IMG/VR virus record: IMGVR_UViG_2671180846_000036
Coordinates: 1-16,577 of that record
DNA length: 16,577 nucleotides
Strand: one strand, 5' to 3'
Source: a virus
Taxonomy: Duplodnaviria > Heunggongvirae > Uroviricota > Caudoviricetes
Made by a program: the position numbers and the translations under genes. Position 1 is the first letter of the stretch, and the number at the start of each line of letters is the position of its first letter. The notes below the pieces were generated by a model. That model saw only the letters and a list, made by a program, of their open reading frames with translations, was not told the DNA's origin and did not search any database. Positions 1,765 to 16,577 of the stretch are shown piece by piece.

Positions 1765-2007
1765 TTACTTCCTTTGCATGGCTCGTAATTTCTTCAGATG
1801 AGTTTCCTGCTCTGTTTCTGCCAGAATTTGTAGGTATTCCTGATGATCGAGCCGTTCAAACGTTTCATTAAAATCGTTTATTTTTACCGACTGTGTTCGC
1901 CCATCCATTCTTCTGTACAACACGGTGTTATTTATGCAGCGAATAATTCTTACCGGGTAACCGGCACTGTCGGTATACAGTTGTCCCTGATTAATCAAAG
2001 CGAACAT
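1765..2007 (-). CDS. Hypothetical protein, 80 aa (start trimmed to the internal ATG beginning MFALINQ)
   Basis: The long ORF 1765..2148 overlaps the upstream gene; the internal ATG at 2005-2007 is preceded by AGGAGAA. No recognisable motif. Confidence 0.45.
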   Translation of the reverse strand: MFALINQGQLYTDSAGYPVRIIRCINNTVLYRRMDGRTQSVKINDFNETFERLDHQEYLQILAETEQETHLKKLRAMQRK

Positions 2008-2038
2008 TTTTTCTCCTGCTCTCTGAATAGTGAGAACT

Positions 2039-2398
2039 TCAGAGTCGTATGTTTGTAGCGGGTTCAATGCTGATGATTTCTGCTGAGATAAGCATCCCGG
2101 CAAGCCAGAGCTCTCCGGACAGGTTTTCATCCTTGCATTCCAGTCCACCGATATTAATGGTGGCTATGATATCGCGCTCATCCTCGACTTCTTCATAAGG
2201 CAGCGTTGCGTACAGGCTTTCAATAGCGCAACTGATAACATCCAGTCCGGTCAGATTGCCGCCGACAGTAACTTCGAATGTTTCGCGGTATTCCCATAAC
2301 CCGAAAGTTAATCGAACGGTTTGTTTTGCCATGCGTCCGCATGACGTCAGATTCGGGTCATAGTTCATTATTTGCGGTTGGGCATTATGGGTGTTCAT
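2039..2398 (-). CDS. Hypothetical protein, about 119 aa (start trimmed to MNTHNAQ)
   Basis: ORF 2039..2470 overlaps the 3' end of the SPFH gene; the internal ATG at 2396-2398 is preceded by AAGGGAAAAG. No recognisable motif. Confidence 0.45.
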   Translation of the reverse strand: MNTHNAQPQIMNYDPNLTSCGRMAKQTVRLTFGLWEYRETFEVTVGGNLTGLDVISCAIESLYATLPYEEVEDERDIIATINIGGLECKDENLSGELWLAGMLISAEIISIEPATNIRL

Positions 2399-2438
2399 CT
2401 GCTTTTCCCTTAGCCCGGCGGCCTGCCGGGCATATAAG

Positions 2439-3266
2439 TTATTTAACCTGGATAAATGGTGTATTAGCACCGCTGGTCATGTATTGCGGCAGTGTGCCGT
2501 TCCATTTATTGATGGCTTCCAGCTCCATAACGCCGGGGTTCTGGCGCAGAGCTTCACCGCGTAAACGAATAGCATCAGCTTCGGCCTGGGCTTTTGTGCG
2601 AATCGCATCAGCCTGTCCGGCAGCTTCTGCGCGCAACATATTGGCTTCCGCTTCGCGCTGTTTTACTTCCTGCTCGCGCTGCAGTGTTTTCTGGTTCGCC
2701 GTGACTTTGGCATTAATGCTGTCGATAACGGTTGGCGGGTACTCCGGCTTACCCACATATGAGAGGCTCATTACCTGAATGCCGATAGGTGTCATCTCTG
2801 CCTGAATGTCTTTAAGAGCTTCATCCAGCAGCTCAGACTTGCCGCCGTCGATAAATTTGTCAGTGGTCATTTTGCTGGCCAGTCGGTTGAGTGCGTCGGC
2901 GATCTTCTGGCGCAGGTCAGTGTCGGTAATGTCATCCACGCCTTTGCGGTAGGTCTGAAACACCGTGGTAACTTTGGATGGATCAACTTTGTAGGCCACA
3001 CCGATGTGATAGCCGATGGTTGTACCGTCACTCATCTGGAAACTGAACGGTTCATCGTAGGTCTTCATTTGTTTGAAGGTGGGGAAGATATAAACTTCAG
3101 TATTCCAGCCAGTCCAGTAGCGACCAACACCGACCACCTCACCGACGCCTTTGTCGTCGCCCAGTTTATTTACCTTGATGCCAACATTACCTGGTTCAAC
3201 GCGATCGCAACCGACAAGGCCAATAGTCGGCAGAACAATGGCTAAAGCAAAAATAATTTTTTTCAT
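2439..3266 (-). CDS. SPFH/band-7 (prohibitin/stomatin-like) domain lipoprotein, 275 aa
   Basis: N-terminal lipoprotein signal peptide MKKIIFALAIVLPTIGLVGC with lipobox LVGC. Central beta-rich region followed by a long Ala/Glu/Arg/Gln-rich coiled-coil (REQEVKQREAEANMLRAEAAGQADAIRTKAQAEADAIRLRGEAL), the typical SPFH architecture. Start overlaps the stop of the upstream membrane-protein gene (ATGA). Confidence 0.75.
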   Translation of the reverse strand: MKKIIFALAIVLPTIGLVGCDRVEPGNVGIKVNKLGDDKGVGEVVGVGRYWTGWNTEVYIFPTFKQMKTYDEPFSFQMSDGTTIGYHIGVAYKVDPSKVTTVFQTYRKGVDDITDTDLRQKIADALNRLASKMTTDKFIDGGKSELLDEALKDIQAEMTPIGIQVMSLSYVGKPEYPPTVIDSINAKVTANQKTLQREQEVKQREAEANMLRAEAAGQADAIRTKAQAEADAIRLRGEALRQNPGVMELEAINKWNGTLPQYMTSGANTPFIQVK

Positions 3267-3451
3267 CTTTTATCCTTAGTGAAAGAAAGACCCTTGTAAA
3301 TGGCATAAATGCAGGGCGGGGTCAGAAACGCCAGTGCAAAGCCAGAAATAACTGCTATCGTATCCTTCATGGATATAAGGAACGGAACGAGTAATCCGTA
3401 AATGCATGCGATAATTGCCAGTGATATGACTATTCTGAAATAAATATTCAT
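3263..3451 (-). CDS. Small integral membrane protein, 62 aa, two predicted TM helices
   Basis: Two hydrophobic stretches (IVISLAIIACIYGLLVPFLI and IAVISGFALAFLTPPCIYAIY) with a basic C-terminal tail. Translationally coupled to the SPFH gene (ATGA overlaps at both ends). Confidence 0.6.
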   Translation of the reverse strand: MNIYFRIVISLAIIACIYGLLVPFLISMKDTIAVISGFALAFLTPPCIYAIYKGLSFTKDKR

Positions 3452-3726
3452 GCTCCTCCTGATATCTTTCTGATTGCCTTTTTCAACTTTTTACTGTTAT
3501 TCACGCTACAGTAAATTTCGGCAATCTCACGTGATAACATTATTTCTCCACTGTTTTTATCTATAGCAACGAGACTGGAATTGTCTCGTATGAGTTTCTT
3601 TATCATTGGCATTGCCATAAACTCTTCTGGCGTATAGATGCGTGTATGGCGGCGAACGTGTTTTATTACAGGTGTTTTATGTTTTGACTCAACCTGAAAT
3701 ACATTAATTTTATTCTGATTTGACAT
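3448..3726 (-). CDS. Hypothetical basic protein, 92 aa
   Basis: Complete ORF, ATG at 3724-3726 two nucleotides after the stop of the upstream gene; Lys/Arg-rich. No recognisable motif. Confidence 0.5.
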   Translation of the reverse strand: MSNQNKINVFQVESKHKTPVIKHVRRHTRIYTPEEFMAMPMIKKLIRDNSSLVAIDKNSGEIMLSREIAEIYCSVNNSKKLKKAIRKISGGA

Positions 3727-3728
3727 AT

Positions 3729-4310
3729 TTAATGTGCCACTGGTGTTTCTGGCATACCATGAGTATTCAGATCGTGAATCATTTCATCCAGAAGGAGTTC
3801 AAGCCCTTCGCGCCCCATAGCAGAAACAATGAAACCATTATCAGGATCTGCGATGAGCATATTTTGATAGAGAAACAGAACTCGCCCCATGCCTTCAGCT
3901 TCGCCATATTTTTCAATAAATCCCCATTCGACATGGTTTTGCAGGGCAATGCGAAGTGGTCCTGGGTATATACTCATGCAACCATGCTTCCCCTTATAAA
4001 TAACTGCGCGATCTGTAGTTCCGTCATCGTTAGGGATATCAATGGTGCCGTTCTTGCCTTCTTCTTCATTTATAAACGTCGTCACATACAGCCATCGCCA
4101 TTGAGCAATCTTCATATCGACTGAAAATCGTCCCAGTAATCCGGCATCATCGGCTTCAGCAATACATTGCATAATTCTTAAACCGTGAGAATTTGGATAA
4201 TCGTATTCACCATCATTAAGCCGCTGTACGGCCTCAACATAATCAATGGTTGTATTGCCCATTTTTATGCCATGTGGCGTAACTTCTGGTCGGAACTCTG
4301 AATGATTCAT
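3729..4310 (-). CDS. Hypothetical protein, 194 aa (start trimmed to MNHSEFRPEV)
   Basis: ATG at 4308-4310 overlaps the TGA stop of the upstream 67-aa gene (ATGA) and is preceded by AAGGAG 7 nt upstream. Acidic protein with no recognisable motif. Confidence 0.55.
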   Translation of the reverse strand: MNHSEFRPEVTPHGIKMGNTTIDYVEAVQRLNDGEYDYPNSHGLRIMQCIAEADDAGLLGRFSVDMKIAQWRWLYVTTFINEEEGKNGTIDIPNDDGTTDRAVIYKGKHGCMSIYPGPLRIALQNHVEWGFIEKYGEAEGMGRVLFLYQNMLIADPDNGFIVSAMGREGLELLLDEMIHDLNTHGMPETPVAH

Positions 4311-4510
4311 AATGTTTGCTCCTTTGCTGGTGGAATAATCGTGTAACCCGCTCTTTTTGCCATCCACAGAAATGTATCCATGCAGCCAACGAATTCATTA
4401 TCCAACAGATGTTTTGAGTAAATTACTTCACCATTTTCAATGGTTAGCAACACTCTTACTTTTTTATGTGTTATGTTTTGTTGTTTTTCTTCCATTGACT
4501 TATCTCCCAT
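4307..4510 (-). CDS. Hypothetical small protein, 67 aa, first gene of a five-gene leftward operon
   Basis: Complete ORF with a roughly 180-nt AT-rich upstream region (4511-4691) that probably carries the promoter; stop overlaps the next start. Confidence 0.45.
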   Translation of the reverse strand: MGDKSMEEKQQNITHKKVRVLLTIENGEVIYSKHLLDNEFVGCMDTFLWMAKRAGYTIIPPAKEQTL

Positions 4511-4691
4511 ATGCTTTGCGCAAATACAGGTTAGCTATATGAAGATAAGAATCTCCATGTTGTGCAATGAGGCAGGCAGTTTTATACGATGCCTTATGTT
4601 TCAGGAAAATCATAACATAATCTCCTGCGAATAAAGGTTGCAATAATCCCCGGCGATAAAACCGTAATAAACATTCAGGGAATATTTATTG

Positions 4692-5057
4692 TTATTGCGC
4701 TAATTCTTTTTCGGCAGCAGCTTTTGCATATTCACATGCAAAATTTAGAATTTCGCTGCCAAGTGTTTTTGTTTCGTGATTACTTGACATATGTAATACC
4801 TGTGTTGCATGCAATAAATGATAAACATTTACCGCAAATGAGTCCGGCTCCAGACAAATGCCTTCATAATCATCTTGTTGTGAGGTTGTTTCTGTCATTG
4901 CTCCTGAAGTGCATGCGAGCCTGTTTTTGACAATTCTCTTTCCTCTAATCACTATATCGGCAACATCTATTGCCTTTACAACCTCCGGGAGAAGTTCCGG
5001 GTTTGTATAATCAAAGTTATCAACATGGAGAACAGTTATGTTTTCGAACTTTTTCAT
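4692..5057 (-). CDS. Hypothetical protein, 121 aa
   Basis: Complete ORF in an AT-rich segment; no recognisable motif. Confidence 0.5.
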   Translation of the reverse strand: MKKFENITVLHVDNFDYTNPELLPEVVKAIDVADIVIRGKRIVKNRLACTSGAMTETTSQQDDYEGICLEPDSFAVNVYHLLHATQVLHMSSNHETKTLGSEILNFACEYAKAAAEKELAQ

Positions 5058-5185
5058 GGCTTCCTCAGCTGACTTATATGTTCTGCTATATAGCGAGTCT
5101 CAGAAGTGTTTTCATATTGAGACTGTTTCCGCAATGATCGATAAAAATGTTCGCATGTACCTTGAGGGGCGAAGCGGTGATTATG

Positions 5186-5734
5186 TCACCATTGGTATTG
5201 GTTCTTCCTTAGAAGAGCTTCGCGAGATAAGGAGCAAACTTGTTGAGATGCGTCATGGTGTTGCTGCTCCTCACTTTTTGGTTGCTCCGGAGGAGTAACC
5301 TCGCCAGTTAACAGCCACATCGGATCGCAGCCAAGAATATTTGCCAGTGGGATAAGCATACTGATAGTTGGTTCATACTCTCCGCTCTCCCACTGGATGA
5401 TAATTTCTTCATCGAGATCGAGCAGCCTGGCGAGTTCGGCGGTTGTTAAGCCGCAGGCTTCGCGTTGGGGGCGAAGGTTAACCAGCCAGCTTTCAGGGAA
5501 GGATTGTTTTTGTTGTGCAGGAGAAGCAGCAGATAGAGCATATTCATGGATAAATTCCATTACCTCAATGCCCAGTTCCTTTGAGCGAGCACAATCCAGA
5601 AGATGGAATGTGCGTACAGCACTTAGCAAATTTGCAATATTTAATGCAAAGGAATCAAGTTCTAAGCCCTTAAGCGTAACACAGCCGCAGTTGATAAAAT
5701 TAGTTGTTTCTGGAGTTGCGTTTAGTGTCTTCAT
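5186..5734 (-). CDS. XRE/Cro-C1-type HTH domain protein, 182 aa
   Basis: Segment LTTAELARLLDLDEEIIIQWESGEYEPTISMLIPLANILGCDPMWLL matches the XRE-family HTH pattern (helix, turn, QWE.G...P....L..LA..L). The HTH sits in the C-terminal half, which is atypical. Confidence 0.55.
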   Translation of the reverse strand: MKTLNATPETTNFINCGCVTLKGLELDSFALNIANLLSAVRTFHLLDCARSKELGIEVMEFIHEYALSAASPAQQKQSFPESWLVNLRPQREACGLTTAELARLLDLDEEIIIQWESGEYEPTISMLIPLANILGCDPMWLLTGEVTPPEQPKSEEQQHHDASQQVCSLSREALLRKNQYQW

Positions 5735-5843
5735 ATATCCACCAACAATTTTAAATTGAATTAAATCAAGTTATAATTGATGGTGCGATATTATGCTTTG
5801 AGAAATAGGCTGTCAAGAAAAAATTGATATTGTGTGTTTTAGG

Positions 5844-5868
5844 CAGAAAAAAACGGGCAAAGCCCGTT
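5844..5868 (-). terminator. Rho-independent terminator downstream of the repressor gene
   Basis: Plus strand aaaaaaa-AACGGGC-aaa-GCCCGTT; on the minus-strand transcript this is a 7-bp GC-rich stem, 3-nt loop, then a U7 tract, about 12 nt after the cI-like stop. Confidence 0.55.
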
Positions 5869-5879
5869 AAAATCAAAGA

Positions 5880-6575
5880 CTAACCAAATCTGTTTATATT
5901 GAATGGTACTGATGAGATCACTTTAGACTGGATATAAAGCAGAGCTAACCCCTCTTTTTCGATGCTCCATGGTTGATAATTGGGGTTATCAGATAACACC
6001 ATGATTTTGCTTCCAATTTTCTGAAGTCTTTTTACGTAGCATTCTCCATCAAAACAAAATGCATAAATGCCATCGCCATCAAAATAAGTTACTGTCTTAT
6101 CAAGAAAAAGAAGGTCGCCAGGTGAGATTGTGGGAGCCATACTGTCTCCTCTGGCGTTACCTATTTCTATATTTTTGAATGCCCGATTTCCAACAAGGCG
6201 TCGGGCATATTCAGGGTCAAGTTCTATTGAGCGCACTACATCTATCAAGTCACCACGGACATGAGTTCCATCACCGCAACTAAACTCAACATCAAGGACA
6301 TTAAACACGACGCTATCTGTTCTTGTCTGGTGTTTCTCTTGCGAGGAAAAGGTTGGTGAGGAGTCTTCACCTAAGAACCAGGATTGTGGATAACCGCTAA
6401 TCTCTGATAAATGCGCGAGCTTATCACTCCGTGGAAATGTTTTTCCTGTTGTCCAATACTGCACTGATTGCGCACTCACACCTAACTTGCGGGCCAGTTG
6501 AGCCTGAGTCCATCCTTTTGCTTTCAGCATTGCGGCTATTCGATTTTCCGTGTTTTTGACGTTCTTCATAACCAA
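5880..6575 (-). CDS. cI: CI-like phage repressor (N-terminal HTH, C-terminal S24 LexA-like autopeptidase), 231 aa
   Basis: N-terminal HTH (WTQAQLARKLGVSAQSVQYWTTGKTFP). The C-terminal domain carries the S24 catalytic Ser in GDSMAPT and the Lys in YVKRL. Divergent from a Cro-like gene across a 127-bp repeat-containing intergenic region. Confidence 0.9.
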   Translation of the reverse strand: MVMKNVKNTENRIAAMLKAKGWTQAQLARKLGVSAQSVQYWTTGKTFPRSDKLAHLSEISGYPQSWFLGEDSSPTFSSQEKHQTRTDSVVFNVLDVEFSCGDGTHVRGDLIDVVRSIELDPEYARRLVGNRAFKNIEIGNARGDSMAPTISPGDLLFLDKTVTYFDGDGIYAFCFDGECYVKRLQKIGSKIMVLSDNPNYQPWSIEKEGLALLYIQSKVISSVPFNINRFG

Positions 6576-6702
6576 ATCCTGTGGGTTTCTTTACAAGGAT
6601 AAATCTTTACTTGATTTTAGTGTATTCGATCCTTTTGTAACTTGCATGTTAATTTAAACTTGATGTATTCTTGATTCATAAAGTTAATATTGGTGCTTTG
6701 TT
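6576..6702. promoter_or_regulatory. Immunity-switch intergenic region (putative divergent promoters and operators)
   Basis: AT-rich 127-bp region between divergent cI-like and cro-like genes. Contains the imperfect inverted pair TACAAGGAT / ATCCTTTTGTA and several copies of ACTTGAT / CTTGATT. Exact operator half-sites and -10/-35 boxes were not resolved. Confidence 0.5.
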
Positions 6703-7002
6703 ATGAAAGGAAATGATTACGACAAACTTCGTGCATTAATTGCGCAAAATGCCATAGCGCGAAATCTTGGTGTGACGCCGCAAGCGGTGAATCAGTGGTT
6801 TTCAAAAAACACAATTCCTGCTCGTTTCGTTTTACGCGTATGTGAAGTAGTTGCATGGAAGGTCACGCCACATGGCTTAAGGCCAGATCTTTATCCTCAC
6901 CCTGAAGATGGAATTCCTGATTCGTTACGCAAAATTTCAAATCCAAGCTTAGCGCGCACGGAAGATGGGCAGAGTGATTTATCAGAAATGTCCACGCGAT
7001 GA
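6703..7002 (+). CDS. Cro-like HTH regulator, 99 aa
   Basis: Small protein with HTH (AIARNLGVTPQAVNQWFSKNTIP) transcribed divergently from the cI-like gene, in the canonical cro position. Short leader and weak SD. Confidence 0.7.
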   Translation: MKGNDYDKLRALIAQNAIARNLGVTPQAVNQWFSKNTIPARFVLRVCEVVAWKVTPHGLRPDLYPHPEDGIPDSLRKISNPSLARTEDGQSDLSEMSTR

Positions 7003-7078
7003 ACGGTTACTGAACGAAAAAAGAAAAGCCGGGCCGCATTCCGTCAGCCCGACTTATTCTGATTAGTAAGGGGATTTC

Positions 7079-7924
7079 ATGATGATCAATAAACAAAAAT
7101 TAGTCAACCCTGAAAACCTGCCAGTTATTGCTGGTGTAGAAATTTCAACTGATATGGTTGGGCGCTTTAATCTGAATGCATTGCATCGAGCCAGCGGTCT
7201 TGGCCCCAATAAAGCTCCGACGCAGTGGTTGCGTACTCAGTCAGCTAAACAACTTATTGAAGAGCTGGAAAAAGAAACTATGCAGAATTGCATAGTTTCA
7301 CTGGAAGGGCGGAATGGCGGTACTTTTGCGCACGAACTGCTTGCTGTTGAATATGCAGGATGGATTTCTCCTGCGTTCCGGTTGCAGGTGAACCAGACTT
7401 TTATTGACTATCGTACTGGCAAACTTACAGCGGGCAATAATCAGTTACCCAATTTTGACGATCCGATCGCTGCTGCTGAAGCGTGGATTGAGGCCAGAAA
7501 AGCCGAACGCCTTGCTCTCGGGTATGTAGAGCGTCAGGCTCGCTACATCAACAAACTTGAAAGCCATCTCGCCGATGGCATCACTCCTGTGCAGTTCTGC
7601 AAACAACTCAACGGTGTAAACACTCGTCAGATTAATGCGTTCCTTGAAGAGCGTAACTGGCTGTATGACGACCGTCCGGAGGCGATGTATCCGCGCTGGC
7701 GTGTAAAAGCGTATGCACGTGACCAATACCTGACTGAGCGTTCTGGGCAGGTTGAGCAGGAAAACGGGGAAATGCGCGAGATTTTCAAACCACTCCTGAA
7801 GAAAAAAGGTGCCGCCTGGTTATATCGCCATTATCTGAACGGCGAACTACCGATGAAGAAAACATGGGATGGGCTATTTACCCATAACACTGAGCTCGCG
7901 AATCTTTTACAGGAGAACAAATGA
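7079..7924 (+). CDS. KilA-N domain protein with C-terminal antirepressor-like region, 281 aa
   Basis: N-terminal segment FNLNALHRASG...GGTFAHELLAVEYAGWISPAFRLQV matches the KilA-N signature as I recall it (GTWxHP.LA...A.WlSP.F). AAGGGGA RBS upstream; stop overlaps the next gene start. Confidence 0.6.
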   Translation: MMINKQKLVNPENLPVIAGVEISTDMVGRFNLNALHRASGLGPNKAPTQWLRTQSAKQLIEELEKETMQNCIVSLEGRNGGTFAHELLAVEYAGWISPAFRLQVNQTFIDYRTGKLTAGNNQLPNFDDPIAAAEAWIEARKAERLALGYVERQARYINKLESHLADGITPVQFCKQLNGVNTRQINAFLEERNWLYDDRPEAMYPRWRVKAYARDQYLTERSGQVEQENGEMREIFKPLLKKKGAAWLYRHYLNGELPMKKTWDGLFTHNTELANLLQENK

Positions 7925-8133
7925 TGCAAACCAAGACGTGTGTAACTGGTGATGTCGATCTGAAACCTTGCCCGTTCTGCGGAAATCCGGAAGTACAACT
8001 CATTGAGGTGAAATATTTTCTGGATGGCGATGATGGTTATTACGTCGCATGTACTTGCTGTAACGCAAACCAGATTCCTGATTCGAAAGAACGTGCCGTT
8101 CATGACTGGAACCAGCGCGAAAACGTGGATTAA
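7921..8133 (+). CDS. Small zinc-ribbon protein, Lar-like (putative restriction alleviation), 70 aa
   Basis: Two Cys pairs (LKPCPFCG ... CTCC). The LKPCPFCG motif and size fit the Lar-family restriction-alleviation proteins of Rac-type prophages as I recall them. Translationally coupled (ATGATG) to the upstream gene. Confidence 0.5.
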   Translation: MMQTKTCVTGDVDLKPCPFCGNPEVQLIEVKYFLDGDDGYYVACTCCNANQIPDSKERAVHDWNQRENVD

Positions 8134-8447
8134 CGGCGAGTAGGTACAAAATGATCCGCAACCAAAATATTGATTCTGCAATTTCGGGACGTTACACTGT
8201 TCCGGCACCTTATAAAGCGGGTGCCGGGATTGGAACCCCGGAATTGCTCGAGGCGATATACGACGCGCCAGCGTCTTTTTTATCGTCCATGCTCGCGCAC
8301 GCCAGAATTATGGTGGGCTGGGCAGGGGAGCCGAAAGGCTCGCCGGTTTCCTTGAGCGCCGGTAGTTCCAACCCTGTCCAGTCCGCCACCAGTGAGATTG
8401 GAACCTCCGGTGGTGGAAGTTTTTCACTGCTCAAGGAGGCTGCCATC

Positions 8448-8810
8448 ATGGCTACAGTCCCAACTTCCCCATACCTGAAAATCGAAGTCGTCAACGGCAA
8501 AGCTGTTATTTTCTCCCTGCATGTTGCCTGCCACTTTAAGCGCATGCACCAGAACATCGTCGACAAAATCGAGTATCTGAACTGCTCACGCGAATTTTTT
8601 ACCCGCAATTTCATACCGGGTACTTATCACATCTATGGTGACTCCCTGCGTGGTTATTACATCACCCTTGATGGGCTGATGATGCTTCAGCTTGGGTTAA
8701 GTCTGCGCACAATGCGGTACTACGAGAGCTGCATTGAAGTATTCCATGAGGCTGAAACCAGTCTGAATCACACTGCTTTCCGCCGTAATCAATGGGAGGT
8801 GCGCCCATGA
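8448..8810 (+). CDS. Rha-family phage regulatory protein, about 120 aa (start at internal ATG; in-frame ORF extends back to 8151)
   Basis: VVNGKAVIFSLHVACHFKRMHQNIVDKIEYLNCSREFF...YITLDGLMMLQLGL resembles the Rha N-terminal domain pattern (V.NG.avt.Sl.vAe.FgK.H.nVlrdi..l.cs.eF...mTrdGf.lL.mg). The ATG at 8448 has a strong AAGGAGG RBS 8 nt upstream; the upstream in-frame extension is GC-rich, low-complexity and lacks a good RBS. Confidence 0.6.
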   Translation: MATVPTSPYLKIEVVNGKAVIFSLHVACHFKRMHQNIVDKIEYLNCSREFFTRNFIPGTYHIYGDSLRGYYITLDGLMMLQLGLSLRTMRYYESCIEVFHEAETSLNHTAFRRNQWEVRP

Positions 8811-9031
8811 TTCGTCGCGTTGTGAATTCTCTGTATCACCGATACAACCGTTGCCCCCGTGTGGGGCAGTGGTTTGCCACCAGCAACGGTCATGTTCTGC
8901 GGGTTTGCCTGGTCAGTACCGAAAGCCAGAAAGTCGTGTGTGAATTACTGGGGCGTAACTACACCATTAGCTACCCACTGGCGGTGTTTCAGTCCGGAAA
9001 AATGTTTAAACGCCTGGGAGGTGCCGTGTGA
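8807..9031 (+). CDS. Hypothetical small protein, 74 aa (start at MIRRV)
   Basis: ATG at 8807 overlaps the Rha stop (ATGA) and is preceded by GGGAGGTG. No recognisable motif. Confidence 0.45.
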   Translation: MIRRVVNSLYHRYNRCPRVGQWFATSNGHVLRVCLVSTESQKVVCELLGRNYTISYPLAVFQSGKMFKRLGGAV

Positions 9032-9984
9032 GTAGCAAAATTCTCGGTAACGTCTGGGATGCATGTGCCGCGTATGGAGTCAAAGGTGCAAAGCTGATGA
9101 TCATGGCGCGCCTGGCTGATTATTCGAATGATGACGGGGTGTGTTACCCCGGTGTTGAAACAATATGCCGACAGCTTGGGTTGGGAGAAAGCACAGTAAG
9201 AACGGCAATTTCAGAGCTGGAGGCTGATGGCTGGCTGACGCGTCATTCACGCCGCAAAGGTAATCGTAATACGTCCAATCTTTATCATCTGAATGCTGAT
9301 CGGCTTGAACAGCTTGCCAGAACGGAGCGGGATAAGGTCGCTGAACTGAAAAAACAGCGCAGACTTTCAGCATTACGTGACCCGTCAGAATCTGAACCGT
9401 CAGAATCTGAACCTTCAAAATCTGAACCGTCAGAATCTGAACCTTCAAAATCTGACCAGTCAGAATCTGAATGTTCAGGTGTGTTTGACCCTTCAGATTC
9501 TGGCAAAAAAACGGTTTTGACCCTTCAGAATCTGGACCCAGATCCACAAGGTTTAAAACATGATCCACAAGTAAATTCAAAACATGATCCGCAAGATATT
9601 GGCGCATCCGCTGACGCGTCTGCACCAGCGCGTTCTGCCCGACAGGAATATTCACCGGAATTTGAACAGGCCTGGCAGGAATATCCCAAACGTGCTGGTG
9701 GCAATTCCAAGTCAGCAGCCTTCAAAGCCTGGAAAGCCCGTCTCAGGGAGGGAATAAAACCGGAGACCATGCTTGATGGTGTGAGACGTTATGCCGCCTG
9801 GGTACGTGCTACAGGAAATACCGGCACACAGTTCGTGAAGCAGGCTGCGACGTTCTTTGGACCCGATCGTCATTTCGAGGAAGCCTGGCAACAGCCAGCC
9901 GCTCCCGGAGGTGGGCGAACTACCGGCCTCCCGATCTCGGGATTCAGTGAGCAGGACTACGGTTCAACGAACTTCAACTGGTGA
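9028..9984 (+). CDS. Replication initiator / replisome organiser (O-like; N-terminal wHTH, repeat-encoded Ser/Glu/Pro linker, C-terminal DnaT-like region), 318 aa
   Basis: N-terminal HTH-like region (CYPGVETICRQLGLGESTVRTAISELEADGWL); an internal low-complexity linker PSESEPSESEPSKSEPSESEPSK encoded by DNA tandem repeats; position immediately upstream of the DnaC-like and DnaB-like genes. The arrangement parallels lambda O, where ori iterons lie inside the gene. Confidence 0.7.
   Translation: MSSKILGNVWDACAAYGVKGAKLMIMARLADYSNDDGVCYPGVETICRQLGLGESTVRTAISELEADGWLTRHSRRKGNRNTSNLYHLNADRLEQLARTERDKVAELKKQRRLSALRDPSESEPSESEPSKSEPSESEPSKSDQSESECSGVFDPSDSGKKTVLTLQNLDPDPQGLKHDPQVNSKHDPQDIGASADASAPARSARQEYSPEFEQAWQEYPKRAGGNSKSAAFKAWKARLREGIKPETMLDGVRRYAAWVRATGNTGTQFVKQAATFFGPDRHFEEAWQQPAAPGGGRTTGLPISGFSEQDYGSTNFNW
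9382..9471. repeat. Six tandem 15-bp direct repeats (consensus CCGTCAGAATCTGAA), putative origin iterons
   Basis: Read directly: CCGTCAGAATCTGAA x2, CCTTCAAAATCTGAA, CCGTCAGAATCTGAA, CCTTCAAAATCTGAC, CAGTCAGAATCTGAA. The core CAGAATCTG is near-palindromic. Two further copies (GACCCTTCAGATTCTGG and GACCCTTCAGAATCTGG) lie at 9487-9535, followed by CATGATCCACAAG repeats and A/T-rich spacers at 9541-9600. Confidence 0.7.
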
Positions 9985-10003
9985 TTTTTCGAGGTGATGA
10001 ACA

Positions 10004-10894
10004 ATGTTTGAACAGTTAAAAAAATACTACGCACAACACGACAAAGCGCAATTGCTCAACCGCAGGGCGGAACTGGAGGAGGAGATGCAGTTTGCCCGTG
10101 CCGGGAAGCGTCCGTGGCGCTGTGAACACTGGCTGACAAGCGAGGAAACTGCTGAGTGTGAGAAACACGGGAAATACACACGTCTGGTGTTGAAAGGGCC
10201 AGATGTTCGTGGGGAAGCCATCAAACGGGTGTCTGGTTGCCCGACCTGCATTGCGAATGAACTGGATCAGGTACAGGAGGCGTTACGCATCCTGAAAGTT
10301 CATGAATTACTCGACAGGGCTGGTATTGCCCGCCGCTTCCAGAACTGCGAGTTTGAGAATTATCAGGCGGTGAATGCTGACGCACAGAGAAATCTTGAGG
10401 CTTGTCGGCGCTATGCCGGTTCATGGGAGAAGTGTCTTGCTGCGGGTACCAGCATGATCATGATTGGCAATTGCGGTACCGGGAAAAATCACCTGGCTGT
10501 ATCAATGGCAAAAAATATTATTCGCCACCACCTGGCGACTGTCGAAATTACGGATGTTATGCGACTGACCCGCGCTGTGAAAAATACCTGGCGTCACAAT
10601 TCTGAACGCACTGAAGATGAAGTTATTGACCATTTTGTATCGCTGGACCTGCTCATCATCGATGAGGTTGGTGTGCAGTTCGGTACGCCAACAGAGATAA
10701 CCATCCTGCAGGAAATCATCAATGCGCGTTACGAAAGCGTGTTACCGACAATTTTGATCAGCAATCTGACGTTTGAACAGCTTAAGGAATCCATTGGTGA
10801 ACGGATTGTGGATCGCGTTACTGATGGTGGGCGTAACTGTCTGGTGTTTGGTTGGGAAAGCTACCGTGCACATATCAGAGGTGTGGCAGCATGA
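10004..10894 (+). CDS. DnaC-like helicase loader (IstB-like AAA+ ATPase), 296 aa
   Basis: Walker A GNCGTGKNHLA and Walker B LLIIDEVG. N-terminal Cys cluster (RCEHW ... GCPTC) suggests a zinc-binding module. GAGGTGA RBS upstream. Confidence 0.85.
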   Translation: MFEQLKKYYAQHDKAQLLNRRAELEEEMQFARAGKRPWRCEHWLTSEETAECEKHGKYTRLVLKGPDVRGEAIKRVSGCPTCIANELDQVQEALRILKVHELLDRAGIARRFQNCEFENYQAVNADAQRNLEACRRYAGSWEKCLAAGTSMIMIGNCGTGKNHLAVSMAKNIIRHHLATVEITDVMRLTRAVKNTWRHNSERTEDEVIDHFVSLDLLIIDEVGVQFGTPTEITILQEIINARYESVLPTILISNLTFEQLKESIGERIVDRVTDGGRNCLVFGWESYRAHIRGVAA

Positions 10895-12282
10895 CAACTC
10901 CAGTCTGGCGTAACGATGACCTGGAAGGCGCTGTCATTGGCGCGTTCTTTCTGCGCGGGGCAGATCCTGAAGTGATGGATATTCTGGCCACACTACCTGC
11001 GGACGTTTTTTCTGTACGACCGTATCGGGATATCTACACAGGCATCTGCAGACAGGCCCGTGTTTCAGGTGTGATTGACCCTGTGCTGCTGTGTAATGAG
11101 ATGCCGGAACTTGCCCCGGTGATTACTGATACCGGGCGTAAAACCTGGGTGAAGTCTTCACTGGAGCACTATGTTGCAGCGTTGCGTCGCAATGCCGCAC
11201 TGCGTGATGCAGAAAAGACGCTGAATGAGGCGTTGCAGAAATTACGTGATGCGCATACCTGTGAAGCAGCTGAAGATGCCCTGAAGGATGCGCAGAACAT
11301 GATGGCCTCATTGTCGACGGAAAAGGGCGTTATTCAGCCGGTACATATTGATGATGTGCTTCCGGAAGTGGTTGAGCGTGTTGAATGCCGGAATCAGGGG
11401 CTGGAGAAATCCAGGACGTTGATGACCGGTATTGATGAACTGGACGCAAAAACGGGCGGCATGGAGCCTGGCGACCTGGTATTTATTGCTGCACGTCCTT
11501 CGATGGGCAAAACCGAACTGGCGCTGGATATCATCGACAAGGTGACTGAGCAGGGGCATGGTGTTCTTCTGTTCACAATGGAAATGGCGAACATCCAGAT
11601 TGGTGAGCGCATGGTATCTGCGGCTGGAGGAATGCCGGTATCACGTCTGAAATCTGTCACTCACTTTGAAGACGAAGACTGGGCACGTTTCTCACAAGGG
11701 GTGGGGCGGATGACCGGGCGCAATATCTGGATGGTGGACCAGGCGAACCTGACCATTGACGAGATATGCGCAACAACGAAACACCACCTGATTAAACATC
11801 CGGAAACGGCGCTGGTGGTGGTTGATTATCTCGGACTGATAAAAACCCGAACCACGGGGCGTCATGACCTTGCCGTGGGTGAAATCTCAAAGGGGCTTAA
11901 AGGTCTGGCAAAATCCGGTGGTTTTCCGTTGATTGCGCTGAGTCAGCTCTCCCGCGGTGTGGAGTCCAGACCCAATAAACGTCCGATGAACTCAGACCTG
12001 AAAAATTCCGGAGAAATAGAGGCGGATGCAGACATCATTCTGATGCTTTACAGGGATGAAGTGTACAACCCGGATACGCAGGCCAGGGGCATCGCAGAAA
12101 TCAATATCACGAAACAGCGTAACGGTTCTCTGGGGACGGTTTACCGGCGTTTTTATAACGGACATTTTCTGCCTGTGGATCAGGAAAGCGCACAGATTCT
12201 TTCCACCCCAATGCAGCAGCCCCAGCCGCGCAGATACAGCAATAAGCGAACCGACAGCAGTAAGATGGAGCGTTTCTTTTGA
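10891..12282 (+). CDS. DnaB-like replicative DNA helicase, about 463 aa (start at MTTPVW)
   Basis: RecA-like C-terminal domain with Walker A ARPSMGKTELAL, Walker B-like VVVDYLGLI and the SQLSR motif typical of DnaB-family helicases. ATG at 10891 overlaps the DnaC-like stop (ATGA). Confidence 0.85.
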   Translation: MTTPVWRNDDLEGAVIGAFFLRGADPEVMDILATLPADVFSVRPYRDIYTGICRQARVSGVIDPVLLCNEMPELAPVITDTGRKTWVKSSLEHYVAALRRNAALRDAEKTLNEALQKLRDAHTCEAAEDALKDAQNMMASLSTEKGVIQPVHIDDVLPEVVERVECRNQGLEKSRTLMTGIDELDAKTGGMEPGDLVFIAARPSMGKTELALDIIDKVTEQGHGVLLFTMEMANIQIGERMVSAAGGMPVSRLKSVTHFEDEDWARFSQGVGRMTGRNIWMVDQANLTIDEICATTKHHLIKHPETALVVVDYLGLIKTRTTGRHDLAVGEISKGLKGLAKSGGFPLIALSQLSRGVESRPNKRPMNSDLKNSGEIEADADIILMLYRDEVYNPDTQARGIAEINITKQRNGSLGTVYRRFYNGHFLPVDQESAQILSTPMQQPQPRRYSNKRTDSSKMERFF

Positions 12283-12293
12283 ACAACCAGACC

Positions 12294-12536
12294 ATGACTT
12301 TTACGCCTGAACAATTACGTAAACAGGCACAGGAAATGTTACGACAGGCGGAACAACTGGAAAAGACAGGCGTAACAAAAGATGCCATTCGTAAGGATAT
12401 GGTGCCAGCGCTCAGGGAACTGATGCAGGCGAAACACCGCGCACAAAAAGCAGTGGATGAGCTGGTGGATTGTGTGGCAGAGCTGGAAACCAAAGTTGGA
12501 AAGTTCGAAAAACTGGTGCAGGAGGTACTGCGCTGA
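12294..12536 (+). CDS. Small coiled-coil hypothetical protein, about 80 aa
   Basis: Charged helical sequence (EQLRKQAQEMLRQAEQLEK...). The track ORF begins at a TTG at 12279; the first ATG is at 12294. Stop overlaps the Q start (TGATG). Confidence 0.45.
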   Translation: MTFTPEQLRKQAQEMLRQAEQLEKTGVTKDAIRKDMVPALRELMQAKHRAQKAVDELVDCVAELETKVGKFEKLVQEVLR

Positions 12537-12904
12537 TGCGTGATATGTACGAAGTTTTAGATCGTTGGGGGGCCTGGGCTGCAGCAGATAACAGTGGTGT
12601 GGACTGGCAGCCGATAGCAGCAGGCTTCAAGGGGCTTTTACCACACGGTAAAAAGTCACGTCTCCAGTGTGATGATGACGAAGGTATCATGATAGACGGT
12701 TGTGTGGCTCGGTTGCGAAAGTATAAACCCGAAGAGTATGAGTTGATCATTGCTCACTTTGTTATTGGTATCTCATTACGCGCTATTGCTAAAAAACGGA
12801 AATGTTCAGATGGAACAATACGGAAAGAGATGCAAACAGCAATGGGGTTTATTGATGGCTGCTTGTCATTTTTCATTTACTACAATGACTTAAGTTCTAT
12901 GTAA
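12536..12904 (+). CDS. Q: Late-gene antitermination protein Q (phage 82/21/DLP12 QuuD-type), 122 aa
   Basis: [60 protein letters not shown]... closely parallels the N-terminus of DLP12/phage-21-type Q as I recall it ([34 protein letters not shown]...[20 protein letters not shown]). Position after the replication genes fits. Confidence 0.85.
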   Translation: [122 protein letters not shown]

Positions 12905-12910
12905 AATCGT

Positions 12911-12945
12911 TCTACTTTCCCAACTTTTATGTGTATATAATACCA
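12911..12945 (+). promoter_or_regulatory. Putative promoter region downstream of Q (candidate PR'-like late promoter or cargo-gene promoter)
   Basis: AT-rich stretch with a consensus TATAAT hexamer at 12936-12941, about 27 nt upstream of the GTG start of the methyltransferase; no convincing -35. Proximity to the Q stop (12904) matches where lambdoid PR'/qut sites lie. Confidence 0.3.
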
Positions 12946-12967
12946 GGATAAAGTAACGGAGAATCTT

Positions 12968-14008
12968 GTGAACATTCAGGCAGTAGACATTTTTTGTGGT
13001 GCGGGGGGCTTAACTTTTGGGCTAAAAAAAGCCGGGATTGAGGTTTCTCATGGTATTGATATTGATGAATCCTGCCGTTTTGCTATTGAGAGCAATAATC
13101 CTTTAACGCAGTTCATTAATCAGTCAGTTACAGAACTGCAATCCTGCGATGTGTCTGCTATGTTCAAGGAAGGAAATATTAGATTGCTTGCTGGATGTGC
13201 TCCTTGCCAACCGTTTTCCAAGTATCGTAATCCAAATAGCCGTAAAGACGATACAAAGTGGCGTTTGTTATATGAGTTTCAAAGGCTTGTAAGTGATGTC
13301 ATGCCAGAGCTTGTGACGATGGAGAATGTTCCTCAACTTAGAAACCATAAGGTTTTTGAAGGGTTTGTTAGTGCATTAAAGACTCTTGGATATCATTTGT
13401 GGTACGACGTTGTAAGATGTTCTGAGTATGGCTTACCTCAAAATAGACGTAGATTAATTCTAATTGGTTCCCAATTGGGGCCGATCAGCCTTGATCAAAA
13501 AAAAGTTAGCCGTAAAGTTACTGTTAAGGATGCTATTGGTAGGTTGCCAAAAGTAGGGGCAGGTGAGAAGCTGGAAAGCGATCCCTTGCATCGTTCGCCT
13601 AAATTGATGGATATCAATCTTAAACGAATCATGCATTCTTTACCTGGTGGTACGTGGGATGACTGGCCTGAAGAAATTAGAGCAGACTGTCATAAAAAGA
13701 ATTCAGGTGCTACCTATAAAAGCGTTTATGGACGGATGGTTTGGGACGATACTAGCCCTACGATAACTACCCAGTGTTATGGATATGGAAATGGACGATT
13801 TGGCCATCCTGAGCAAAATCGCGCCATAACTTTGCGTGAAGCTGCGATTTTGCAATCCTTTCCAATGGATTATAAATTCCTTGACAAGGAGACGCCTTTT
13901 TCATTCCAAAAATTGGGGACAATGATTGGAAATGCTGTTCCCCCTATAATTGGTCAGATAATAGGGGAAACATTTATCAGACATGTTGAGGGGATAAATA
14001 CCCGTTAG
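12968..14008 (+). CDS. DNA (cytosine-5)-methyltransferase (Dcm-type), 346 aa, GTG start
   Basis: Canonical C5-MTase motifs in order: I DIFCGAGG (FxGxGG), IV GCAPCQPFS (catalytic PCQ), VI TMENVPQL (ENV), VIII QNRRRL, X GNAVPP. ACGGAG RBS upstream. AT-rich relative to the replication module. Confidence 0.9.
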   Translation: MNIQAVDIFCGAGGLTFGLKKAGIEVSHGIDIDESCRFAIESNNPLTQFINQSVTELQSCDVSAMFKEGNIRLLAGCAPCQPFSKYRNPNSRKDDTKWRLLYEFQRLVSDVMPELVTMENVPQLRNHKVFEGFVSALKTLGYHLWYDVVRCSEYGLPQNRRRLILIGSQLGPISLDQKKVSRKVTVKDAIGRLPKVGAGEKLESDPLHRSPKLMDINLKRIMHSLPGGTWDDWPEEIRADCHKKNSGATYKSVYGRMVWDDTSPTITTQCYGYGNGRFGHPEQNRAITLREAAILQSFPMDYKFLDKETPFSFQKLGTMIGNAVPPIIGQIIGETFIRHVEGINTR

Positions 14009-14666
14009 AGGTAATATAATTTTCTGTTGAGTTGATTAATAAACGCAAATATAGATCAATTCTTTCTGACCTCGATTTGACTTCTTCTAAAGGGTCTATT
14101 TGACCTTTTTTAGAAAAGCTGGTACTTCCATGTGCCAGCTCATTTCTGATATCTTTAAGTAAATCTAAGTCAACACCATTTCTACACTCTGGTGAGTTTG
14201 CAACAGTTATTCCGTAAGCTTGTGTTATTTTGTGCAATACAGACTTGCAAACATTACCATTGAATTCTTTACGTATGTTTAATGAGGCTGAAATGATCCT
14301 TTTAGATATATCGGAACCAATTTTTTGATAAAGAGATTTTCCCGATTCATTATCTGAAATGATACGGTGCAAGATATTTACTTGGAATTTCTCCCTGAGT
14401 GATGCGTAATTTACTTCATTATCTTGCAAATGGTCATAAATTGACTCAATGCATCCTCTGGCAGTGTTTTCAACCTGATTGTACAGCATCATGTGCACGG
14501 ATGATTTTAAAATGTTAACCCTAAGGGTATTTGATTCTATTTCATCTTTATGCGTTTGCTGATCTAACTGCTGAGTCTGAGCCTCTAAAGATGACGCAAG
14601 AGAAAGCAATTCCATAATATCTCTTGCTCTTTCTTCGTATTCATCTCTTAAATCAATCAAACTCAT
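13977..14666 (-). CDS. HEPN-like protein (Rx4H motif; resembles the MAE_28990/MAE_18760 HEPN family), 229 aa
   Basis: Predicted all-helical protein with the motif DIRNELAHG (R-x4-H) in the C-terminal third, the hallmark of HEPN RNase domains. Second gene of a two-gene operon (start 2 nt after the DUF262 gene stop). Its 3' end overlaps the convergent C5-MTase gene by 32 bp. Confidence 0.55.
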   Translation of the reverse strand: MSLIDLRDEYEERARDIMELLSLASSLEAQTQQLDQQTHKDEIESNTLRVNILKSSVHMMLYNQVENTARGCIESIYDHLQDNEVNYASLREKFQVNILHRIISDNESGKSLYQKIGSDISKRIISASLNIRKEFNGNVCKSVLHKITQAYGITVANSPECRNGVDLDLLKDIRNELAHGSTSFSKKGQIDPLEEVKSRSERIDLYLRLLINSTENYITSNGYLSPQHV

Positions 14667-14668
14667 AG

Positions 14669-15826
14669 TTACATTCCTAATAATTTATCTTTGACATAAA
14701 ATATTCTGTTTTTGAGTTGGCTGGTGTTGTTGGCACTATCAGCAGTAACTATGGTTTCAAATTCCTCCCCAAACAGCCAGTCTCCTACAGGAATAACCGG
14801 AGCCTGTAGATGTGGATTGGCTTTTAAGGCAAGAGCAGTTCCCACTGCTATGGCTTCGTATCTAGCACGGGGGGTGGTTTTGCTTGTTGGTGTCTTTTTA
14901 AACCCCATAGGGAAATGAGTATCTACAAAAGCAAGCATGCTTTCAAAATCATGTTTAAATTTGTCAACATCTTGTTGTGTGACCCTTTCGGCCTGAACAT
15001 TAAGATAATTGTCAATAAAAGGAGCGACATAACCCTTATAATTTTCTAAATCATTTAAGTATGCAAAAAATCTCAAAACTAACTCACGATGATCGCCATT
15101 CGAACGCTTCCGGTCTGATAATGGAGCTAGACTAGCGAAAAGTGGATTTGTTGAGCAAGGAGTCACAACATCCCTATAGAAAATTGAAGTGGCCGCATCT
15201 GAACCATGTCTAACCTCCATCGCTTCCAGTCTCTTAACACCTGAATTTATTCTTTCGAATAAATCTCTTCTATGTTGCTCCTCAACATCACCTTTCAATT
15301 CAATAAATCTTAGTGATGCCCTTAAAAATCGCCTCTGGCGGCTAGCCAAAAGATCTGAAAATTTGAAGCCCTCTAAACTTTTGAGTTCTTTTAAGTCTTT
15401 CAATTCAAACTGATTGTTCCAAAAGTAGTAAATTGAGCGAATCCTTTGTGAACCGTCAATAATTTCTACACGACCATCCAACTCAGGATCTTCATTAAAT
15501 ACGTCGGAGATGTAGAGGTACGGGATTGGAAAATCTAATAATATACTTTCGATGAATCGAGAGGCTGTTTTGATATCCCATTTGTAATCGCGTTGATAAT
15601 CAGGAATAAAAAGTTCGTTTTTGTCAGTTTCAAGATTATTGCCATACTTTTGTACAATTAATTCAACGGTCCATTCACGTACGTTGTATCCAATATTTCT
15701 CTGAGCAAGCCTAATCTCGTTGTCGGCAGAAGTGACCAAGGCTGCAATTTCAGCTTTTTTTCTATTTTTCGCGTTTTCATCTTGAATCTGAGCAAGCTCT
15801 TCTTTGAGTTCTTTGAGTGTGGTCAT
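14669..15826 (-). CDS. DUF262 (ParB/Srx-like NTPase, GmrS-N-like) domain protein, 385 aa
   Basis: N-terminal region contains the two DUF262 signature motifs: IPDYQRDYKW (P-x-[FY]-QR-x-Y-x-W) and EIIDGSQRIRSIY (DGQQR-like). No recognisable C-terminal HNH/DUF1524 nuclease. AGGAA RBS upstream of the ATG at 15824-15826. Confidence 0.8.
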   Translation of the reverse strand: MTTLKELKEELAQIQDENAKNRKKAEIAALVTSADNEIRLAQRNIGYNVREWTVELIVQKYGNNLETDKNELFIPDYQRDYKWDIKTASRFIESILLDFPIPYLYISDVFNEDPELDGRVEIIDGSQRIRSIYYFWNNQFELKDLKELKSLEGFKFSDLLASRQRRFLRASLRFIELKGDVEEQHRRDLFERINSGVKRLEAMEVRHGSDAATSIFYRDVVTPCSTNPLFASLAPLSDRKRSNGDHRELVLRFFAYLNDLENYKGYVAPFIDNYLNVQAERVTQQDVDKFKHDFESMLAFVDTHFPMGFKKTPTSKTTPRARYEAIAVGTALALKANPHLQAPVIPVGDWLFGEEFETIVTADSANNTSQLKNRIFYVKDKLLGM

Positions 15827-15936
15827 ATCACTGTTCCTTTAATTGGAGTTGGAAATAGATTGTAAGAAAACTATAACGCGTACGCAAAAAATATTATATC
15901 GTGTTAAGAGTGGTTACTACGCCACACAGCTTAAAC

Positions 15937-15957
15937 CCGCCGCCAGGCGGTTTTTTG
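15937..15957 (+). terminator. Putative rho-independent terminator (plus-strand orientation)
   Basis: CCGCC-gcca-GGCGG hairpin (5-bp GC stem, 4-nt loop) followed by TTTTTTGTGT. No plus-strand CDS lies immediately upstream, since the region between 14008 and 15826 is occupied by minus-strand genes. Confidence 0.4.
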
Positions 15958-16079
15958 TGTCCGAAAAACGGCGCAGTACGTTAAACGTGCTGGTGGTTGC
16001 GAATACCGGTCTTTCAGCTTGCTGGCTTTTCAGACAAGAGTTATTGGTGTGTCACGTTAACCAGAAAAGGGAAAAAGAC

Positions 16080-16277
16080 ATGCTAAAACAGCAGGATATG
16101 ACCGAAACCGCCAGAGTGGTATTTAATGAATTAAGTGTCACCGAACCGGCGACCGTCGGGGAAATTGCGCAGAATACCTACCTTTCACGCGAACGCTGCC
16201 AGTTAATACTGACCCAGCTTGTTATGGCGGGTCTGGCAGATTATCAGTTCGGTTGTTACAGACGCCTTCCGCAGTGA
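16080..16277 (+). CDS. Small putative winged-helix DNA-binding protein, about 65 aa (start at MLKQQ; alternative start MTETA at 16098)
   Basis: Internal start of ORF 15843..16277, preceded by AAAAGGGAAAAAG. Segment ATVGEIAQNTYLSRERCQLILTQLVMAGLA looks like a wHTH recognition helix and is reminiscent of FaeA/PapI-like small regulators; the resemblance is weak. Confidence 0.4.
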   Translation: MLKQQDMTETARVVFNELSVTEPATVGEIAQNTYLSRERCQLILTQLVMAGLADYQFGCYRRLPQ

Positions 16278-16427
16278 AGGCTTTTTAATTTGTGGTAATG
16301 GGCGGCTGGTGGGTGTTAGCGGCACCTGCCAGCCATCTGCTCATGCGTTGGGGTCACAAGCAAACCTCAGGCCCATCTGCTTTGCGCAAAAGCGGAATGA
16401 GCCTATCAGAGAAGTGCTTATTGATCT

Positions 16428-16577
16428 ATGGCTAATACTGTAAAAATATCCAGTTGTGAGTTAATCAACGCTGATTGCCTGGAATTTATCCAGACCTTAC
16501 CGGAAAACTCTGTCGATCTGATAGTCACAGACCCGCCATACTTTAAAGTGAAGCCCGAGGGCTGGGATAACCAGTGG
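16428..16577 (+). CDS. DNA methyltransferase, N6-adenine/N4-cytosine class (DPPY motif), 5' partial (first 50 codons; runs off the window)
   Basis: Hand translation from the ATG at 16428: MANTVKISSCELINADCLEFIQTLPENSVDLIVTDPPYFKVKPEGWDNQW. SVDLIVTDPPY is the catalytic motif IV (DPPY) of amino-MTases, placed near the N-terminus as in beta-class enzymes. Absent from the ORF track because no stop lies within the window. Confidence 0.75.
   Translation, partial: MANTVKISSCELINADCLEFIQTLPENSVDLIVTDPPYFKVKPEGWDNQW

Follow-up and report, generated by a model that had tools for sequence, protein, structure and literature searches.

The 16,577-nucleotide (nt) stretch of Caudoviricetes DNA analysed here (positions 1 to 16,577 of the IMG/VR record IMGVR_UViG_2671180846_000036, hereafter the window) carries what is very probably a methylase-linked DUF262-HEPN defence cassette, formed by a gene for a DUF262 protein (A), a gene for a HEPN protein (B) and a gene for a C-5 cytosine DNA methyltransferase (M). 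The original prediction for this DNA, made from its letters alone, had noticed A and B and described them as a two-gene operon; because the conserved unit normally consists of three genes, including the adjacent 5-methylcytosine (m5C) methyltransferase that was then missed, the boundary of the cassette had been drawn one gene too short. Considered as a whole, the locus is best explained as a three-gene mobile defence cassette with restriction-modification-like logic, a reading on which our confidence is evenly divided. The cassette is neither rare nor undescribed, and its main appeal is the possible link, readily open to testing, between DNA methylation and a HEPN RNase.

The two open reading frames (ORFs) first noticed, of 385 and 229 amino acids (aa) and 2 nt apart, as well as the motifs read in them, are borne out by the ORF list and its translations, and the Pfam searches upheld both domain assignments. 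A matches PF03235 (GmrSD_N/DUF262, 1.1e-25) over residues 69-206 only and displays the motifs IPDYQRDYKW (residues 74-83) and IIDGSQR (residues 122-128), with the DGSQR at residues 124-128 invariant in the alignment of its relatives. A total of 2857 homologues of A are found at E<=1e-5, and the Prokaryotic Genome Annotation Pipeline (PGAP) names it 'DUF262 domain-containing protein'. The C-terminal half of A is all-helical in the predicted model, without a beta-beta-alpha element, and the closest structural relatives of the protein are BrxU and SspE. On the basis of this model, A is predicted to be a ParB-fold NTPase with a helical ParBDB-like C-terminal domain, which might act as a DNA sensor or switch. 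As had been claimed, A has no fused nuclease of the DUF1524 or HNH type, Pfam giving no such match even at E<=1, and no PD-(D/E)XK, HNH, GIY-YIG or PLD domain was matched in either A or B. That the C-terminal half of A might hide a His-Me/HNH nuclease, an idea prompted by the invariant D245-H246 and N366-N367 in a first alignment, was ruled out by the all-helical model, the lack of a DUF1524 match and the weaker residue conservation in a wider set of 47 loci, where D245, H246 and N367 are each conserved in less than 90% of cases.

B matches PF18737 (HEPN_MAE_28990, 3.8e-16) along residues 6-221 and, more weakly, PF18735 (HEPN_RiboL-PSP, 6.7e-8), and it is also matched by phrog_3846 at 3e-85. 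Its Rx4H motif, RNELAH, occupies residues 174-179 (R174 to H179), and an alignment of 77 sequences shows that R174, N175, L177, A178, H179 and G180 are conserved at 95-100%, and E66 and the G137-N138 pair each reach 99%. The PGAP name of the protein, 'MAE_28990/MAE_18760 family HEPN-like nuclease', is in line with these matches, and B is predicted to be the RNase effector of the cassette. M matches PF00145 over its full length (9.5e-54), has C80 of its PCQ motif as the catalytic Cys, is named 'DNA cytosine methyltransferase' by PGAP (WP_001025378.1) and finds its best structure matches in Dnmt1, 3g7u and M.HaeIII, all of them restricted to the catalytic core. The most conserved segment of M is the usual site of the target-recognition domain (TRD), and such a conserved TRD region fits a single fixed specificity.

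The linkage of the three genes was followed in 80 loci fetched from species-representative genomes, with A relatives at 38-59% identity; 325 species-representative genomes matched in all. The hosts of these loci include Gammaproteobacteria, Betaproteobacteria, Cyanobacteria, Planctomycetes, Bacteroidales, Verrucomicrobiota and Armatimonadota, among others. That the pair co-occurs well outside the locus where it was first seen is clear from 76 of the 80 loci, in which a B homologue lies directly downstream of A on the same strand, with a negative spacing (overlapping start and stop) in 45 of these 76 and with 0-12 nt in 27. A and B are thus real genes, conserved far beyond chance. An orthologue of M (E 1e-105 to 1e-136) adjoins the pair in 51 of the 80 loci. 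In 45 of them it follows B in convergent orientation, in the other 6 it shares the strand of the pair and is placed either before A or after B, and a different m5C methylase takes this place in 5 further loci. When only loci with an orthologous M were taken for the analysis of spacings, the convergent layout of M and B was found in 44 of 50 genome loci and in 58 of 59 viral ones, and the 3' ends of both genes overlap in 33 of these 44 and in 34 of these 58, respectively. Over 47 loci, the divergence of A correlates with that of B (r=0.91) and with that of M (r=0.77; Mantel p=0.001 for both), a co-divergence to which a shared host phylogeny may contribute.

As an adjacent gene, M is a frequent but not an obligate partner of A and B. 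No adjacent m5C methylase is found in 22 of the genome loci, 7 of them cut by a contig end, and M is absent from 15 loci that have room for it. At least 11 loci lack any methylase within about 5 kb, as exemplified by Microcoleus, where the pair is flanked by ClpB and BrkB. In four loci A and B have an MmeI/Eco57I-type N6-methylase fusion on one side and a large helicase on the other. Two loci of this kind, from Alcanivorax and Brachymonas (L048:1715-11851 and L057), have no m5C methylase and keep A and B on the same strand as both flanking genes, which encode a 1376-aa MmeI/Eco57I-type N6-methylase fusion and a helicase-domain protein of about 1330 aa; this arrangement may reflect a bigger composite system that has exchanged its methylation partner.

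Among IMG/VR viral contigs, all three genes occur together in 59 of 71. The 12 exceptions comprise 6 contigs cut at their ends, 5 distant (29-34%) DUF262 relatives (L152-L156) and one locus, L145, with a truncated A and an m5C methylase fragment further away, so that no intact close relative with space for M is among them. The same layout is found in the P2-like phage P2_4B2 and in the Moraxella Mcat phages, the cassette being carried by both P2-like and lambdoid phages. In complete E. coli genomes the A-B pair occurs in 107 out of 5426 (about 2%, including one O25b:H4-ST131 isolate and one O111:H8 isolate), and M accompanies it in all 107. These E. coli cassettes fall into two variants (99.9% and 86.9% identity) carried by two different lambdoid prophages in the same slot between Q and the lysis genes. 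Numbers such as these, together with the 325 species-representative genomes, leave little of the earlier suggestion that the family could be rare.

Cassettes in decay have also been recorded. M is frameshifted next to an intact A-B pair in phage P2_4B2 and in L024, while A or B is disrupted beside an intact M in L023, L066, L062 and possibly L035; a census of 3-4 loci against 2 is too small to decide between both patterns, and errors in sequencing or in metagenome-assembled genomes are possible. In the deposited genome of this phage (L082:2021-3041; Peduovirus P24B2, NC_049387.1), one frameshift close to residue 227 breaks M in two and A (gp44) and B (gp43) are intact, which reflects a sequencing error or else a naturally M-minus, A-B-plus state. 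In the L035 locus of Okeania sp. SIO3I5 (7166-8646), two partial copies of the HEPN gene follow each other in tandem between A and the methylase, where a further piece of it is also found; the effector gene has been duplicated or rearranged locally.

The association of the three genes had already been advanced in 2013, when a table of HEPN contexts listed an operon made of a MAE_28990 HEPN gene, a ParB-superfamily gene and a DNA methylase (Table 1 in Anantharaman et al. 2013, Biol Direct; PMC3710099). That entry is a single line from comparative genomics, unnamed and with neither experiment nor mechanism, where the ParB protein is called a nuclease. All three features, a HEPN gene with an Rx4-6H motif, a DUF262/ParB gene and a methylase gene, are found in the window, and by its sequence the cassette falls in this category, so it can hardly be regarded as undescribed, as had been proposed. 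Our search of the available literature for experimental work on a methylase, a DUF262 protein and a HEPN protein together found none. In this regard, the closest experimental precedent is PD-T4-2 ('DUF262, HEPN') from E. coli ECOR65, which protects K-12 against T4; once it is deleted, T4 forms plaques on ECOR65 again (Vassallo et al. 2022, Nat Microbiol; PMC9519451). Later papers describe PD-T4-2, and DUF262+HEPN systems with it, as 'largely uncharacterized' (PMC12065111). Like A and B, PD-T4-2 is formed by two co-oriented genes, DUF262 followed by HEPN, and HHpred relates PD-T4-2B to HEPN_RiboL-PSP (97.8%) and HEPN_MAE_28990 (96.9%) (PMC9519451), the same two Pfam HEPN families matched by B. 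It functions with the two genes that were cloned, whereas the family described here normally comes with an m5C methylase.

The cassette corresponds only halfway to a two-gene system that already has a name. A matches the PADLOC model PD-T4-2_A (3.4e-27, 93 bits, model positions 52-313 of 363), more weakly than it matches NsnA, and PD-T4-2_B, a model of 168 aa, finds nothing in B at E<=1. The same pattern is shared by L082, L083, L058 and L048, whose B relatives have no PD-T4-2_B match at E<=1 either, and by a more distant Klebsiella phage pair. As a proxy for PD-T4-2 we used a PD-T4-2-like pair in the IMG/VR locus L153, instead of PD-T4-2A (RCO39066.1) and PD-T4-2B (an unannotated ORF at QOYX01000002:338334-339873) themselves; its DUF262 protein matches PD-T4-2_A end to end with 168 bits, and the 168-aa PD-T4-2_B is weakly matched by the partner protein of 170 aa. 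The A proteins of the window and of L153 share 34% identity in the DUF262 domain only, and the profiles of B and of the L153 partner align at the RNxxxHG motif only (hhalign probability <1%). Owing to the lack of a PD-T4-2_B match, the cassette was not counted in the PD-T4-2 sequence family; A by itself is a borderline case, matching part of the PD-T4-2_A model and aligning with the proxy in the DUF262 domain only. Two phages matched by tblastn are not PD-T4-2 proper either: P2_4B2 belongs to the methylase-linked cassette family and the Klebsiella phage ST16-OXA48phi5.4 to another lineage of DUF262 plus partner. As judged from these sequence comparisons, the cassette stands apart as a methylase-linked family of its own in the DUF262+HEPN class, of which PD-T4-2 is the validated example. 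Further pairs of a DUF262 gene and a downstream partner were seen in two viral contigs (L152:3839-5811 and L154:1182-2961) and in a Klebsiella P2-like phage (L084:2860-4763), with partners of 220-273 aa that bear RNRIAH in L152 and RNKIAH in L154, none of them with a methylase or a PD-T4-2_B match, and therefore the DUF262-HEPN class appears to contain several unnamed lineages.

Other known systems share single parts with the cassette. A has the architecture of NsnA from Menshen (NsnABC; Millman 2022; Li et al. 2025 NAR), a ParB-DUF262 domain plus a helical ParBDB, and matches the PADLOC NsnA model at 7e-46. Nevertheless, the gene downstream of A encodes a HEPN protein rather than the ABC/OLD-type ATPase NsnB, no ATPase is present in the cassette, and the third gene of Menshen, the inPIN effector NsnC, is absent, so membership in Menshen was ruled out. 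The profile hidden Markov model of NsnA is, moreover, non-specific. A true Menshen locus (L155; NsnB 9.3e-96, NsnC 3.5e-40) reaches only 99 bits with NsnA, against 155-256 bits for HEPN-linked DUF262 proteins, and since the genuine NsnA scores below them, a match to this model is not diagnostic. From the comparison of L155:3980-6964 with positions 14669-15826 of the window, the PADLOC 2.0 NsnA model (PDLC03877) behaves as a generic detector of DUF262 plus ParBDB, and what is called as an orphan 'NsnA' may in reality be a DUF262-HEPN system. The PADLOC 2.0 models would leave the cassette uncalled or flag only an orphan 'NsnA', and therefore censuses of defence systems likely miss or mislabel it.

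With GmrSD, BrxU and SspE, A shares a DUF262 NTPase carrying the DGxQR motif, but the DUF1524 His-Me nuclease of those enzymes is neither fused to A nor encoded by neighbouring genes, the effector being here a separate HEPN protein. Likewise, the linked modification is m5C methylation and not the phosphorothioation sensed by some DUF262-DUF1524 enzymes. As for classical Type II restriction-modification, the methylase is present and an endonuclease of a known DNase fold is not. The PADLOC 'Type II restriction enzyme' model PDLC03418 gives weak matches (E 1e-5 to 1.5e-11) in the DUF262 core of A relatives and none in the A of the window. This model, of 372 positions, matched the A homologues of L082, L083, L058, L048, L084 and L152-L155, which implies that a REBASE-derived family of restriction endonucleases contains a DUF262 domain.

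How the cassette might work can be outlined from these parts. A restriction-modification logic with an RNA-cutting effector is the simplest reading, because an M of apparently fixed specificity is tightly linked across phyla to a predicted DNA-binding NTPase and a predicted RNase. M would mark resident DNA at one fixed target sequence, and A would bind DNA and read this mark through its ParBDB and DUF262 domains, in a manner comparable to the DUF262 proteins that sense phosphorothioate or modified cytosine (SspE, GmrSD, BrxU). Non-self DNA, most simply the unmethylated target sites of an incoming phage, would then throw an NTP-dependent switch in A that releases or activates B, whose dimers would cut RNA (tRNA or mRNA) and bring the infection to a halt, probably with the loss of the cell. 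We infer the direction of methylation sensing, the interaction between A and B and the RNA target, and a defence function itself is suggested by the likeness to PD-T4-2 and by the genomic position. As a specific mechanism, that unmethylated DNA switches on the RNase is put forward tentatively, at clearly less than even confidence. The complete picture, in which a ParB-fold NTPase reads the m5C state at a fixed sequence and unmarked DNA unleashes a HEPN RNase as a restriction arm that does not cut DNA, is possible yet slightly more doubtful. If it were true, epigenetic discrimination of self and non-self would be coupled to an RNA-targeting abortive-infection effector, restriction-modification logic would extend to such effectors, a ligand of DUF262 would be defined in a simple prophage system of E. 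coli, and PD-T4-2-type pairs could be explained as derivatives without a methylase of their own, relying on a resident one or on some other cue.

The earlier notion of a sensor NTPase plus an RNase as a candidate defence module holds up as a reading, and a dedicated, highly conserved methylase makes it directly testable by asking whether the methylation state gates the RNase. Its more specific form, a type IV enzyme whose nuclease is supplied in trans by HEPN, is a reasonable analogy that nonetheless ignores M, which points to a self/non-self logic similar to restriction-modification more than to a restriction that depends on modification alone. Under this type IV-like explanation, A would sense hypermodified phage DNA (hydroxymethylcytosine or glucosyl-hydroxymethylcytosine of T-even phages) and trigger a HEPN RNase replacing the DUF1524 DNase, with M as a functionally separate passenger, for instance the prophage's own anti-restriction methylase. 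BrxU and SspE being the nearest structural relatives of A, the existence of at least 11 A-B loci that lack a methylase, and the selection of PD-T4-2 on T4 as a working two-gene system all speak in its favour, as does the protection against T2 and T6 that systems selected on T4 generally gave as well (PMC9519451). It leaves unexplained, however, why, across many phyla and also in 59 of the 71 viral contigs, an M orthologue with a conserved TRD region stays beside B, with overlapping 3' ends, and why A and M co-diverge, and we consider it unlikely. Furthermore, E. coli is normally Dcm+, and because of this the sensor cannot respond to m5C in general.

Somewhat less likely again is a classical restriction-modification system, in which A itself would be a nuclease or nickase cutting unmethylated sites and B a second-line RNase or an accessory subunit. 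The 2013 annotation of the ParB protein as 'ParB nuclease' (PMC3710099), the convergent layout typical of a methylase and a restriction gene, the weak PDLC03418 matches over the DUF262 core of A relatives and the three or four loci with an orphan M beside a disrupted A or B agree with it. Conversely, DUF262 is the NTPase or sensor in the characterised GmrSD, BrxU and SspE, where DUF1524 does the cleavage; the A of the window has no PDLC03418 match and none of the nuclease domains listed above; and B is co-inherited as tightly as A with its catalytic motif kept, arguing for an effector and not for an accessory subunit. An addiction module, that is, a HEPN toxin restrained by A and/or by methylation that retains the prophage through post-segregational killing, with anti-phage activity absent or incidental, seems improbable. 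HEPN proteins often serve as the toxin in toxin-antitoxin systems (PMC3710099) and the cassette is mobile, located in prophages and islands, but the related PD-T4-2 strongly protects its native strain from phage, the NTPase motifs of A are invariant and would be needless in an inert antitoxin, and both the Q-lysis junction and the end of the P2-like phage genome are known slots for prophage defence, fitting a defence cargo.

The genomic context agrees with that of a cargo. The annotated E. coli chromosome locus L001, 99.8% identical to the window region, displays the gene order Q, cassette and lysis genes of a lambdoid prophage in its PGAP annotation, and the cassette is a 'moron' cargo in the Q-to-lysis slot of such a prophage (Table 1). 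The AT-rich island described after Q, on the strand opposite to the phage transcripts, is found again in this annotation and in the base composition: the G+C content is 0.35-0.39 over 14001-15500, versus 0.49-0.53 in the upstream replication genes, and both A and B run opposite to Q and the late genes. Given their 2-nt junction, A and B are likely to be translationally coupled. Upstream of A we find a TATAAT hexamer as the candidate -10 element, and a second one lies at 12936-12941(+); the frequency of this hexamer in the window is no better than chance, and a consensus promoter scan called no promoter for A-B or for M. No RNA family was detected inside or beside the cassette in an Rfam scan, and megablast against the INPHARED phages gave no match, though protein-level relatives in phages do exist.

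Table 1. Coordinates of the cassette and of its bordering elements in the window.
Feature	Position	Strand	Remarks
A (DUF262 protein)	14669..15826	-	385 aa, ATG start
B (HEPN protein)	13977..14666	-	229 aa, ATG start
M (C-5 cytosine DNA methyltransferase)	12968..14008	+	346 aa, GTG start; convergent with B
Overlap of the M and B 3' ends, 32 nt	13977..14008	.	From ORF coordinates
Spacer between A stop and B start, 2 nt	14667..14668	-	A TAA, then 'ct', then B ATG
Antiterminator Q gene	12536..12904	+	Left boundary of the cargo slot; PGAP annotation of L001, coordinates shifted by 1101
TATAAT hexamer, candidate -10 of an A-B promoter	15893..15898	-	66 nt upstream of the A ATG; inferred only
Terminator-like hairpin, G+C-rich, followed by a T run	15937..15957	+	Right-hand cassette edge; CCGCCGCCAGGCGG then TTTTTTGTGT

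To the right of the cassette, a second G+C-rich hairpin with a T run at 16264-16290(+) brackets, together with the one at 15937-15957, a small ORF (16080-16277). Both hairpins lie on the strand of the late genes as possible Q-dependent (tR'-like) terminators, and terminator-like sites are over-represented in 12400-16577 (8 observed versus 3.5 expected). Just before the lysis genes, a second and unrelated 'DNA-methyltransferase' gene occupies 16428-16577 and runs past the end of the window. According to annotation, in the prophage type of the window it is a truncated pseudogene fused to a DUF6645 pseudogene, whereas the prophage with the 86.9%-identity variant has it intact, with 350 aa (L085:12523-13575). 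With this second gene beside M, the slot therefore carries two methylases. Far from the cassette, in the early region, Rfam recognises an isrK Hfq-binding RNA at 8205-8281(+) (63 bits) and, directly after it, a C4 antisense RNA at 8306-8393(+) (86 bits). The two RNAs are located between two Rha-family regulator genes, overlapping the gene of an 'ash family protein', and look like a P1/P7-type antisense immunity element within a lambdoid prophage.

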